Shown here: positions 1-27,648 of the stretch, in pieces | Layout: the number at the start of each line of letters is the position of its first letter | How positions within the stretch are numbered: the stretch's first letter is position 1 | Assembly: GCA_031273495.1 (NCBI GenBank) | Contig: JAISRT010000041.1 | Span: forward strand, 1-53,631 | Reading direction: 5' to 3' | Length of the DNA stretch: 53,631 nucleotides | From: Candidatus Ancillula kalotermitis | Lineage (GTDB): Bacteria > Actinomycetota > Actinomycetes > Actinomycetales > Bifidobacteriaceae | Program-made: the position numbers and the translations under genes | The notes under the pieces: model-generated | Databases searched by the model: none | What the model was told of the DNA's origin: nothing | What the model saw: the letters and a program-made list of their open reading frames with translations, nothing else

Positions 1-91
1 GATTAGCGTAGATTCTCAAGTTTACGAGCCACAATGGACAACTTGTTGTATATTTTTGGCGACAAACGCAGAAAATCGAGCGATTAGCGAG

Positions 92-250
92 ATTCTCGGG
101 ACAAGCCCAAGAATGACAGGAGACGTCAAGCCCAGGGGTGACAGGAGACGTCAAGCCCAGGGGTGACCGGAGACGTCAAGCCCAGGGGTGACAGGAGACG
201 TCAAGCCCAAGAATGACAGGAGACGTCAAGCCCAGGGGTGACAGTAATGA
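92..250. repeat. Repeat cluster A: terminal hairpin module plus 25-bp tandem repeat (about 5.7 copies, 103-244)
   Basis: Unit AAGCCCA(GGGG/AGAA)TGACAGGAGACGTC repeats at 103, 128, 153, 178, 203 and 228. 92-114 is the minus-sense hairpin ATTCTTGGG-CTTGT-CCCGAGAAT. Confidence 0.9.
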
Positions 251-281
251 GGGGTAATATGTCATCTTTGACTACAAGTCG

Positions 282-290
282 TGCTATACT
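282..290 (+). promoter_or_regulatory. Extended -10 box TGCTATACT upstream of the GT2 gene
   Basis: The 6-nt spacer GATGAA is followed by ATA 297, which is in frame with the GT2 ORF. Confidence 0.6.
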
Positions 291-377
291 GATGAAATAG
301 GTATATTAACATTATTCGACTATCTGCTCATTGTTATTGGGCTGTTTGGGTTCTGCTACCAATTTTTCTGCATTATC

Positions 378-1565
378 GTGGGCTGGTTCGGCAAGCCTCT
401 GGTATACCCTGACATCCCGCCTAGGCGGATATGCGCGATAATCTCCGCTAGAAATGAGTCTGCAGTTATAGGCAATCTGATTGACTCGCTCAACAGCCAA
501 GAGTATGACAAGGACTTTCTTGATGTGTGGGTGTGCGCAGACAACTGCACTGACTCAACTGCCCAAATATGCCGCGACAAAGGTGCATATGTCGTTGAGC
601 GCTTTAATCAAGAGATGATCGGGAAGGGGTATGCTCTAAGTTATCTCTTCAACAATATCCGGAAGGGGCTCTTCGGCGAGTCAGAGTTCACGAGTAGCAA
701 TCCTGCAGAGCTAGCGAAGCGGACCGCGCAGTATGAGGCATTTCTAGTCTTGGATGCCGACAACATTCTGGAACCTGATTACGTTAAGGAGATGAACAAG
801 GTATTCTCAGACTCTAACCGTGTAGTCACCAGCTACCGCAACTCGAAGAACTTCAATTCGAACTGGATCTCCTCTGGCTCAGCACTATGGTTTGTCCGCG
901 AGTCGAGGCTCTTGAATAACTCTCGGTCTATCTTCGGGGCAAGTTGCCACGTCGGAGGCACTGGGTTTATGTTCGCACGTTCGATTATGGAGCGCAATGA
1001 CGGGTGGAAGCATCATCTCTTGACCGAGGACCTTGAGTTCACTATGGACTGCGTGTTGCATGGTGACAAAGTGGCGTATTGTGGGACTGCAGTGCTGTAT
1101 GACGAGCAGCCAGTGACATTTTCGCAGTCTTGGAGGCAACGTTTGCGGTGGTCGAAAGGGTTCTTGCAAGTCTTCAGTCACTACGGCCCCAAACTCATCC
1201 GACAAGCGTTTAGTCGGGGTGACTTTTCTTGTGTGGACTTGACGATCTTAATTTTCCCGTGGATATTGATCAGCATTATACGCATTCTAATCGGACTACT
1301 GTATGTCCTGTTAGGGTTTGTCTCGTTTGGCTCGCAGTTGAACTCAGTCAGTCAGTCTGTCTTTACCATGGTGTTGGGGTCACTGTTCTTGATGTGCATC
1401 GCTGCGCTGACGGTCCTGATTGAGGGGAAGAAAATTGGAGCATCGCGCCTCGAACTTCTGGGCTACGTGATATCCTTCCCGCTCTTCATCCTCAGCTACA
1501 TCCCAATCTCATTTTACGCAATTTTCTCCAAGGTGGAATGGAAGCCGATTGAGCATGGCAACTGA
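378..1565 (+). CDS. Family-2 glycosyltransferase, membrane-embedded (processive synthase-like)
   Basis: 395-aa ORF with GT-A motifs (ISARNES, LDADN) and QRLRWSKG, the Q(R/Q)xRW motif of processive GT2 enzymes. Several C-terminal TM helices. The 27 in-frame codons upstream (297-377) encode a TM helix but contain no ATG/GTG/TTG (see findings). Confidence 0.85.
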   Translation: MGWFGKPLVYPDIPPRRICAIISARNESAVIGNLIDSLNSQEYDKDFLDVWVCADNCTDSTAQICRDKGAYVVERFNQEMIGKGYALSYLFNNIRKGLFGESEFTSSNPAELAKRTAQYEAFLVLDADNILEPDYVKEMNKVFSDSNRVVTSYRNSKNFNSNWISSGSALWFVRESRLLNNSRSIFGASCHVGGTGFMFARSIMERNDGWKHHLLTEDLEFTMDCVLHGDKVAYCGTAVLYDEQPVTFSQSWRQRLRWSKGFLQVFSHYGPKLIRQAFSRGDFSCVDLTILIFPWILISIIRILIGLLYVLLGFVSFGSQLNSVSQSVFTMVLGSLFLMCIAALTVLIEGKKIGASRLELLGYVISFPLFILSYIPISFYAIFSKVEWKPIEHGN

Positions 1566-7415: not shown

Positions 7416-7544
7416 TTGAACCAGGAAGCCGAAATACTCTTGAGCGTCATTCTCCAGGCAGTCTGGCAGTAAAAAGTCAAACGACTCCCCAAGATGAAGG
7501 GGAGCGCCGATAACTGAAACCTGTGCAACTGCCGTGATTTAACA

Positions 7545-7553
7545 ATTATAGCA
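7545..7553 (-). promoter_or_regulatory. Extended -10 box TGCTATAAT (minus strand) for priA
   Basis: The spacer TGTTAA contains the in-frame stop TAA. It is followed by ATC at 7538-7536, the first codon of the open PriA frame. Confidence 0.65.
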
Positions 7554-26190: not shown

Positions 26191-27648
26191 GTGCGAATGT
26201 GCTACAATACTGATATTAAGGTTGAGGCTTACGAGCTAGCATTGGGCAACGTTGACGCGTTGGATGTTTTTTTGCGTCTCCGAAGTGTTGATTCGCATTG
26301 CTTTATATTGGAGTCTCTTGAGGGCGCACACTGGAGTTTTATCGGCTGGTACCCCATTCTCGAAATCACACTCCGCAATGGACATTTCTTGCAGAAGAAC
26401 TTAAAGAGTGGCGTGATGGAAGTTGACATTCAGACTGACGCACCCAAACAGTTGCTCCAACAAGTGCTTGACGATTTTCACTGCACGCCATCTGATCTGG
26501 AAAGTTTAACAAATATCTCCGAGCTCCCTCCGTTCACGGGCGGTCTGATGGGGTATTTTAGCTACGACTATATTAAGTATGCCGAGCCGACTTTGCGGCC
26601 ATTTTTCGAGCGGATGAAGGACACTGAGCGGTTTAATGACTTCGACTTGATGCTGTTTAACAATGTTATCGCGATTAACAACAACACGCAGAAGATGGTG
26701 ATTATCCACAACTCGTATGATGACACACCGTTCGATTATAAGCAGGTCTACAATACTGTGACATCTGCCCCGAAGTATAGTATGCAGGCATTAGAGATTC
26801 TTGAGGACCCCGATTTCATGTTCAACGAGCAGCAGTGGGGTGAAATTGTAGACAAAGCGCAGGAGCACATACAGCAAGGCGACATCTTCCAGGTAGTGCT
26901 CTCGAATCGGATGCAAGCGCGCGCTGAGGGAACACTTTTTGATGCCTACCGCGAGATGCGCGCCAAGAATCCGTCACCTTATATGTTTTACCTCAACTCT
27001 GACGAGCTCGAGATTGCGGGGTGCTCTCCGGAAACGCTGACGTCTTTGAGGCGTGACGGGCGTGAGGGGAACATGGTGGCTCGGACATTCCCACTTGCGG
27101 GGACGAGGCCACGCGGAGCGACCGCAGAAGAGGATGCACGTATTGAAGAGGAGTTGTTGAGCGACGAGAAAGAGCGTGCTGAGCACAATATGTTGGTTGA
27201 CTTGGGGCGTAATGACATCGGCAGAATTAGTAAAATCGGGTCAGTTGAGGTCGAGGACTATATGTCAGTATCAAGGTTTTCACATGTCATGCACATTGGC
27301 TCGAAGGTGAAGGGCATTCTTGAGGACGGACTTTCGGCACTTGACGTTATTGAGTCAGTTTTGCCCGCTGGAACACTCTCTGGTGCACCCAAAATCCGCG
27401 CTTGTGAGATTATTGACTGCCTGGAAGGCGACAGTCGCGGGATTTACGGTGGGTGTCTCGGTTATCTTGGTCTGGACGGTCAGATGGATATGTGTATAAC
27501 AATTCGGACAATCTACAAAAAGGGTGGCTATGTCTACGCGAGAAGTGGTGCCGGCATCGTTATGGATTCTAACGCGCGTTCAGAATACGTCGAGACAATC
27601 AATAAGATTAAGTCAAGCACTTTGGCTCTCGGGTTGGTGGTCAAATGA
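26191..27648 (+). CDS. Chorismate-utilising enzyme, anthranilate/aminodeoxychorismate synthase component I (TrpE/PabB family)
   Basis: 485 aa with motifs GDIFQVVLS, SPSPYMFY, GTLSGAPK and GGCLGY. The start is uncertain: GTG 26191 and ATG 26197 overlap the promoter box at 26200-26208. ATT 26215 or TTG 26242 are more plausible. Confidence 0.8.
   Translation: MRMCYNTDIKVEAYELALGNVDALDVFLRLRSVDSHCFILESLEGAHWSFIGWYPILEITLRNGHFLQKNLKSGVMEVDIQTDAPKQLLQQVLDDFHCTPSDLESLTNISELPPFTGGLMGYFSYDYIKYAEPTLRPFFERMKDTERFNDFDLMLFNNVIAINNNTQKMVIIHNSYDDTPFDYKQVYNTVTSAPKYSMQALEILEDPDFMFNEQQWGEIVDKAQEHIQQGDIFQVVLSNRMQARAEGTLFDAYREMRAKNPSPYMFYLNSDELEIAGCSPETLTSLRRDGREGNMVARTFPLAGTRPRGATAEEDARIEEELLSDEKERAEHNMLVDLGRNDIGRISKIGSVEVEDYMSVSRFSHVMHIGSKVKGILEDGLSALDVIESVLPAGTLSGAPKIRACEIIDCLEGDSRGIYGGCLGYLGLDGQMDMCITIRTIYKKGGYVYARSGAGIVMDSNARSEYVETINKIKSSTLALGLVVK
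26200..26208 (+). promoter_or_regulatory. Extended -10 box TGCTACAAT for the trpE/pabB-like gene
   Basis: Spacer ACTGAT, then in-frame ATT 26215. Confidence 0.6.

Follow-up and report, generated by a model that had tools for sequence, protein, structure and literature searches.

A putative leaderless AUA start in a membrane glycosyltransferase gene of Candidatus Ancillula kalotermitis

Contig JAISRT010000041.1 of the Candidatus Ancillula kalotermitis assembly GCA_031273495.1, whose 53,631 nucleotides (nt) constitute the window analysed here, carries near its beginning a gene for a membrane glycosyltransferase of family 2 (GT2) that, judging from its sequence, is probably translated from the 5'-terminal AUA of a leaderless mRNA, with an N-terminal transmembrane (TM) helix encoded from ATA 297 onward. 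The layout on which an earlier note on this DNA had based the same proposal can be read directly in the sequence: an extended -10 box, TGCTATACT, at 282-290 is followed by GATGAA at 291-296 and by ATA 297, whose first base is the seventh after the box, and the codons at 297-377 include no ATG, GTG or TTG, so that GTG 378 is the first canonical start. The reading frame is open from 258 on, downstream of TAA 255-257, and contains no in-frame ATG, GTG or TTG in 258-296 either. The 27 codons at 297-377 translate as IGILTLFDYLLIVIGLFGFCYQFFCII, and a protein begun at GTG 378 would read (M)GWFGKP. No Shine-Dalgarno (SD) sequence was found before GTG 378, which is preceded by CAATTTTTCTGCATTATC, nor does the sequence upstream of ATA 297, ACTGATGAA, contain a purine-rich SD 5-10 nt before the codon, as an SD-dependent near-cognate start of the infC type would; a search of window positions 1-600 against Rfam matched no RNA element. 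The combination of TGCTATACT, 6 nt and ATA, with no SD, is thus that of bacterial leaderless genes, in which a -10 element lies 6-7 nt before the first codon, but the codon itself is ATA and not the AUG or GUG that stands at the 5' end of such mRNAs.

Sequence comparison indicates that the N-terminal helix is part of the protein. Protein alignments comprised 21 and 36 sequences, the larger including 35 homologues, all of which begin M-x-(L/F/I)-L-x-x-(L/F)-D exactly in the column of ATA 297; five residues that are invariant across the family (L4, D8, Y21, Q22 and C25) are all encoded upstream of GTG 378. The conservation that the earlier note had asked to be checked is therefore present in 35 of 35 homologues, and its assignment of 297-377 to a TM helix agrees both with the Kyte-Doolittle hydropathy, which reaches its maximum of 2.55 within the first 32 residues, and with the AlphaFold2 model for all 422 residues encoded from ATA 297 on (mean predicted local distance difference test score, pLDDT, 86.9; predicted template modelling score 0.86), in which residues 2-31 form one long helix with a pLDDT of 85-87. 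The model contains further helices at 314-338, 344-380 and 384-410 and shows a GT-A domain and C-terminal membrane helices. Only with a start at 297 does the protein have a TM helix before the glycosyltransferase (GT) domain in addition to the C-terminal TM bundle, and the database entry for this enzyme (P0002, 395 residues) lacks the first membrane helix.

The 422-codon frame is intact and retains all family-invariant residues, including D153-A-D155, T243-E244-D245 and Q281-R-L-R-W285, which are invariant in the 36 aligned sequences. The protein belongs to GT2 by its Pfam matches (Glyco_tranf_2_3, 84.6 bits with a cut-off of 27; Glyco_trans_2_3, 74.2 bits), and it falls short of the NCBIfam equivalog cut-offs for EpsU (105 bits vs 700) and PgaC_IcaA (66 bits vs 422). 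Among database proteins it is closest to those of 'Candidatus Ancillula' and other Bifidobacteriaceae (54-74% identity, 407-447 residues), and the best Foldseek matches are hyaluronan synthases (E=1e-14, TM-score 0.66) and the bacterial cellulose synthase BcsA. Because of these structural matches and the invariant DxD, TED and QRLRW motifs, the product is probably a membrane-embedded and probably processive sugar-polymer synthase resembling hyaluronan, cellulose or poly-N-acetylglucosamine synthases. With the known enzymes of that kind (hyaluronan synthase 8smn/7sp8, BcsA 4hg6, PgaC/IcaA, EpsU) it has in common a GT-A fold with DxD, TED and QxxRW motifs, the placement of TM segments before the catalytic domain, seen also in the best structural matches, and a TM bundle at the C terminus, but its identity to these enzymes is merely 13-18% and it has a single N-terminal TM helix.

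The history of the start codon can be followed in relatives. In 17 related genomes (three of the same genus and 14 of the same family), the codon aligned with ATA 297 is ATG in 15 and GTG in 2, and most of these genes have an AGGAG-type SD before the start and no -10 box. The nearest lineages form a well-supported tree, (window, (P0005, (P0003, P0009))), and their start regions read, as box, spacer and codon, TGCTATACT, GATGAA and ATA in the window; GGTTATACT, TAAAAT and ATA in L030 (encoding P0009); TGTTAAACT, GTGAAT and GTG in L031 (P0003); and TGTTATACT, TAAAATA and ATG in L044 (P0005). In this sub-clade, therefore, the geometry of box and 6-7-nt spacer is conserved while the start codon varies between ATA, GTG and ATG. 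The window lineage and L030, which share ATA, do not group as sisters, and the L030 gene, which is intact and whose product is 68% identical to that of the window, was assembled independently from a different sample (Logan DRR534531), which argues against both a sequencing error and a recent dead-end mutation. The gene calls of two of these relatives are probably wrong at their 5' ends (L030:1489-1503, L031:299-307): P0009 was called from a TTG four codons in ('MLFD') and is truncated as a result, and P0003 was called from a GTG that lies two codons too far upstream.

The same geometry recurs throughout the genome, of which the window is contig C23 (1.07 Mb in 62 contigs, 49% G+C, 81% complete). 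It exceeds chance: the 1.07 Mb contain 466 copies of the strict box TGCTAYAMT, compared with about 33 expected for a 4-fold degenerate 9-mer, and in-frame ATG codons with a long open reading frame (ORF) lie predominantly 6 nt from the box (127 cases, vs 3 at 5 nt, 35 at 7 nt and 20 at 8 nt). A scan for TGNTANNNT followed by exactly 6 nt and a codon that opens a frame of 100 or more codons returned 272 sites, at which the codon was ATG in 127 cases, GTG in 13, ATA in 21, ATT in 17, ATC in 4, GTA in 6, GTT in 7 and GTC in 1, with any other codon at no more than 5 sites each. The codons ATA, ATT, ATC, GTA, GTT and GTC, together denoted RTH, were thus observed 56 times, compared with about 10 expected from the control rate on roughly 89 background sites; RTH made up 11% of the sites of three control motifs (reversed or scrambled) and 11.5% of codon usage. 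Enrichment over expectation is about 16-fold for ATA, 8-fold for GTA and 6-fold for ATT, about 46 genes with ATA, ATT, ATC, GTA or GTT stand above background, and these five codons head about a fifth to a quarter of the predicted leaderless genes of the genome, a share that would be about 20-29% if such starts are routine in the lineage.

The variation is restricted to the third base, with A or G in the first position and T in the second. The first- and second-position variants ACG, AAG, CTG and TTG were not enriched at these sites, and where they are present a canonical start follows within a few codons. This restriction fits a functional near-cognate start and not random decay. Promoter consensus sequences drawn from 126 ATG-type and 35 non-canonical leaderless genes are alike in the two classes (..GTGCTATACTA.TGAT-ATG and ..TGTGCTATACTAGTGGT-ATA), no -35 signal was found in either, and -10 boxes lacking the TG extension remained at background level except for two CGCTATACT cases, tgt (GTA) and a C39 gene (ATC). 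For 21 of the 56 non-canonical genes, including the glycosyltransferase gene and priA, the open frame offers no canonical start before the non-canonical codon, and the first to follow it is 10 or more codons away. The geometry of priA, to which the earlier note had also drawn attention, is indeed the same: on the minus strand (window 7536-7553), TGCTATAAT and TGTTAA precede ATC at 7538, with a stop codon directly upstream and the first canonical start 41 codons in. ATA and ATT are also frequent at +1 where no ORF follows; that RTH codons merely reflect a promoter-region preference of leadered transcripts is partly true, but this explanation fails on the in-frame excess and on the matches to profile position 1 (Table 1).

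Twenty non-canonical candidates were compared with NCBIfam profiles. In IspF, CoaC, ArgC, NadB, PrfB and others, the alignments place the non-canonical codon at profile position 1 or only a few residues away from it, whereas the first canonical codon of the profiled genes lies 17-47 codons downstream (6 for IspG), and starting there would delete Rossmann GxGxxG motifs or catalytic segments. Several of the genes (prfB, tilS, ispF, ispG and coaC) are normally essential, which makes wholesale pseudogenisation untenable.

Table 1. Candidate proteins with non-canonical start codons and the points at which their NCBIfam profile alignments begin
Protein	Codon	Position in protein	Position in profile
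IspF	ATA	from residue 2	from 1
CoaC	ATT	2-139	2-139
ArgC	GTA	from 4	from 2
Prephenate dehydrogenase	GTT	from 2	from 2-3
NadB	ATA	from 3	from 4-5
GlgX	ATA	from 10	from 6
IspG	ATC	from 4-5	from 16 / 5 (two models)
PrfB	ATT	from 6	from 2
NadE	GTA	from 10	from 10
PriA	ATC	from 3	from 14

The product of tilS is the enzyme that causes AUA to be read as isoleucine. The genome contains tilS (C24:14626) and three tRNA-CAU genes, one of which is tRNA-Ile2-like and another of which matches a standard initiator in its anticodon arm, with a GGG/CCC stem and a CUCAUAA loop. The infC gene is intact, with an SD-led TTG start, and its product aligns normally with solved IF3 structures, the equivalents of Y75, D106, K110, R131 and R133 being conserved. 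Recoding of ATA as methionine is ruled out by tilS and the tRNA-Ile2-like gene, and also by the presence of ATT, ATC, GTA and GTT at the same position; loss of or damage to IF3 or the initiator tRNA was likewise rejected, since infC is intact and the initiator anticodon stem-loop canonical. We conclude that ATA is not recoded and that no gene-level defect lies behind relaxed start selection, and the relaxation, if real, would belong to the way this organism initiates on leaderless mRNAs, or to something that the tilS, tRNA-CAU and infC genes do not reveal. The tilS gene (C24:14626, plus strand) itself stands behind a box, 6 nt and ATT, with no canonical alternative upstream.

In the mechanism that we propose for the glycosyltransferase gene, RNA polymerase would use the extended -10 box and start transcription 7 nt downstream, at A297, which would yield an mRNA with neither a leader nor an SD. 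A ribosome, probably a 70S particle by analogy with other leaderless systems, would bind the 5' end of this mRNA with initiator fMet-tRNA (anticodon CAU), and initiation would proceed on 5'-AUA with the first two bases paired and the mismatch at the third tolerated. The geometry, its conservation, its recurrence across the genome and the intact genes for translation are seen in the sequence; we infer the start of transcription at 297, the use of the initiator tRNA and the efficiency of initiation, which may be low on ATA, as would suit a low-abundance membrane enzyme. For the lineage as a whole, the balance of the sequence comparisons tips slightly towards the view that these termite-gut-associated Bifidobacteriaceae routinely start leaderless mRNAs on 5' AUA, AUU, AUC, GUA or GUU with an apparently ordinary initiator tRNA and IF3, in other words that a mitochondria-like rule by which the first two bases suffice operates in a bacterium. 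An excess of box, 6 nt and ATG over the reversed-pattern control is strong in the genome itself, in three congeners and in the low-G+C family members G006, G010 and G016, and was not found in typical high-G+C bifidobacteria; the same genomes also show an apparent excess of ATH (ATA, ATT or ATC), which in the relatives may stem from an AT-rich background. IspF of the relatives starts with ATG, mostly behind an SD. From this sampling, the clearest cases are the genome of the window and the organism of L030.

Several observations weigh against initiation on such codons. For leaderless translation in Mycobacterium smegmatis, a 5' ATG or GTG is 'necessary and sufficient', with ATC used as the incompetent control (PMC4633059). 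In Caulobacter, a 5' AUC, AUU or AUA on a leaderless mRNA 'drastically decreased' reporter output, and non-AUG codons occur in only 4.4% of natural leaderless mRNAs (PMC8459731); all 916 leaderless genes of Deinococcus deserti start with ATG or GTG (PMC4007540). The bacteria tested so far thus need AUG, or AUG or GUG, for leaderless translation (PMC8459731, PMC4633059, PMC4007540), and the exception named in that literature is mammalian mitochondria, whose leaderless mRNAs begin less often with AUG than with GUG, AUC, AUU and AUA combined (PMC8459731; PMC11775629). On the side of the genomes, nothing in infC or the initiator tRNA gene accounts for a relaxed specificity, 12 sampled sites with a box and ATH in the congener G001 had 0-1 long open frames, no identical DNA for the locus was found in public contig collections, and 23 of the 56 non-canonical genes have an in-frame canonical codon upstream, usually within or before the promoter box, from which an alternative leadered transcript could be translated.

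Comparison with the known systems shows where the glycosyltransferase gene conforms and where it departs. As in Mycobacterium tuberculosis and M. smegmatis (Cortes 2013, PMC3898074; Shell 2015, PMC4633059) and in D. deserti (de Groot 2014, PMC4007540), the -10 box lies 6-7 nt before the first codon, and as predicted here the leaderless genes of those bacteria, of which the mycobacteria belong to the same phylum (Actinomycetota), have no 5' untranslated region and no SD and form a large share of the genes of the genome. They differ in having AUG or GUG alone at the 5' end, whereas here ATA heads the glycosyltransferase gene and ATA, ATT, ATC, GTA or GTT the approximately 46 genes above background. 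Mammalian mitochondria resemble the present case in their reduced genome and in leaderless mRNAs with 5' AUG, AUA, AUU or AUC (PMC11775629, PMC7797035), but they read AUA as methionine throughout and have a single tRNA-Met with f5C34, in contrast to the tilS gene, the tRNA-Ile2-like CAU gene, the separate canonical initiator and the normal-looking IF3 found here. With AUA not reassigned, more than one CAU tRNA and the lysidine system in place, the mitochondrial machinery is not present, and the likeness to mitochondria therefore lies in behaviour and not in machinery. Near-cognate initiation on SD-led mRNAs (infC AUU; mycobacterial ATT reporters, PMC4633059; the survey of all 64 codons in E. 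coli, bioRxiv 10.1101/063800) also has the initiator tRNA read AUA, AUU or AUC with a third-position mismatch, as proposed here, but those cases are anchored by SD-anti-SD pairing, rare and weak, whereas the use predicted here is leaderless and frequent.

Other explanations of the glycosyltransferase locus were weighed against initiation at the 5' end. One rival, which we consider unlikely, keeps a near-cognate start, be it ATA 297 or, for instance, ATC 264, but places it on a leadered mRNA made from a promoter further upstream that has gone unrecognised. ATC 264 does lie in the frame that is open from 258, and near-cognate starts in other bacteria work better with a leader and an SD (PMC4633059, PMC8459731), but there is no SD before 297 or 264 and no Rfam element in 1-600, the residues encoded by 258-296 have no counterpart in any homologue, and the box and spacer are kept in the sister lineages in a geometry that is the dominant leaderless signature of the genome. 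We also think it improbable that the start was lost by a change of ATG to ATA, leaving the gene as a recent, unexpressed pseudogene of a symbiont whose genome is shrinking. Loss of the start codon is a common first step in gene decay, and the genome is small (1.07 Mb at 81% completeness) and related to the termite-gut 'Candidatus Ancillula' symbionts. Yet the 422-codon frame is intact with every family-invariant residue, a relative as divergent as 68% identity has ATA with an intact gene, only third-base variants occur, with no changes of the first or second base, and the same class of codon heads prfB, tilS, ispF, ispG, coaC and argC, which cannot all be dead.

A start at GTG 378, on an mRNA with an 81-nt leader and with the upstream frame as a relic, would give a 395-residue enzyme without its first TM helix; this is the first canonical codon and the choice of ORF callers (database entry P0002, 395 residues). 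We hold it to be quite unlikely, because no SD precedes GTG 378, the 27 upstream codons are stop-free and hydrophobic and include the five family-invariant residues, the helix is found in all 35 homologues and modelled confidently as a packed helix, and a like argument would strip Rossmann or catalytic N termini from more than 15 other enzymes. An error of sequencing or assembly that hides a G at 299 is very unlikely even though the source is a fragmented metagenome-assembled genome of 62 contigs: it would require about 45 third-base errors in start codons above background, solely behind one promoter box and with the ORFs intact, the substitutions are to A, T and C in varied contexts, so that no single error motif fits, and the independently assembled relative (Logan DRR534531) reads ATA as well. 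A programmed frameshift from ATG 259, which opens a 13-codon frame (MSSLTTSRAILMK, stop TAG 298-300) whose end overlaps ATA 297, into the GT2 frame near 295-300 is hardly credible, since the junction lacks a slippery heptamer, the -10 box follows ATG 259, relatives do not have the short frame and the genome-wide pattern would be left unexplained.

If confirmed, initiation on 5'-AUA would mean that the AUG/GUG rule for bacterial leaderless mRNAs is not universal and that a start would be set by the 5' end together with 'RU'. It would contradict the requirement for AUG or GUG established in Mycobacterium, Caulobacter, Deinococcus and E. coli, would give mitochondrial initiation a bacterial counterpart, one that evolved with none of the tRNA changes of mitochondria, and would make the selection of starts by ribosomes on leaderless mRNA testable in a simple comparative system. 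Weakened start codons may serve to set low expression in reduced genomes. Gene finders that demand ATG, GTG or TTG shorten such proteins, as they do this enzyme, to 395 residues, and P0009.

Table 2. Features in and around the 5' region of the glycosyltransferase gene (window coordinates)
Feature	Position	Strand	Remarks
25-bp tandem repeat, 5.7 copies, consensus CAAGCCCAGGGGTGACAGGAGACGT	102..244		Tandem Repeats Finder, 90% matches; context only
In-frame TAA stop	255..257	+	Closes the frame upstream
Predicted extended -10 promoter box TGCTATACT (TGn + TATACT)	282..290	+	Genome consensus; conserved in three sister lineages as TGnTA(T/A)ACT
6-nt spacer GATGAA between -10 box and predicted transcription start; no SD	291..296	+	6 nt is the sharp genome-wide optimum
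ATA, predicted transcript +1 and inferred start codon, at the place of the ancestral ATG/GTG	297..299	+	Alignments
N-terminal TM helix, residues 2-31, including invariant L4, D8, Y21, Q22, C25	300..389	+	Alignment, hydropathy, AlphaFold2
GTG, first canonical start, chosen by automatic ORF calling	378..380	+	Inside the helix; no SD upstream
Complete GT2 membrane glycosyltransferase ORF, 422 codons + TGA	297..1565	+	GT-A domain with DxD, TED, QRLRW motifs; C-terminal TM bundle

The next gene is an aroK-aroB fusion (535 residues from TTG 1549), whose 17-nt overlap with the end of the glycosyltransferase ORF (1549-1565) suggests that the two are co-transcribed. Elsewhere in the window, TGCTACAAT, ACTGAT and ATT (26200-26217, plus strand) head a 477-codon ORF (IKVEAYELALGNVD...) for which the caller picks GTG 26191, upstream of the -10 box; going by its sequence, this ATT may bring the number of non-canonical leaderless starts in the window to three. 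A different arrangement is found at glmM (C7:14998-16413, minus strand; '..KKTARLFGTDGVRG'), which has no canonical start before its conserved N terminus, no -10 box at 6 nt and an SD-like AGAGG ahead of an ACG codon, and which possibly represents a non-canonical SD-led start or a different problem. In the congener G001, many leaderless-type sites (e.g. C1:7019, C2:4737 and C5:150) read TGGTATAAT GGAGGT ATG, with a spacer that resembles an SD but lies too near the ATG to act as one.

The 25-bp tandem repeat at 102-244 is similar to modules of a dispersed GC-rich repeat family of the genome, and 'aagccaagggtgaca' modules, which are similar to it, stand before many copies of the promoter. A dispersed repeat whose last part reads '...GCGAATGAAGTT AG TGCTATACT nnnGAT' directly adjoins the start codons of dozens of genes, with ATG as well as ATA, ATT or ATC (for example at C38:18023(-), C44:10118(+), C13:36949(+), C15:41817(-) and window 53501); alternative upstream modules are 'ttattccggaggaaaattt', 'ggtggcttcgccgccct' and 'aagccaagggtgacat'. 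A repeat family thus seems to supply many of the leaderless promoters of the genome, which may bear on how promoters came to lie exactly at start codons.

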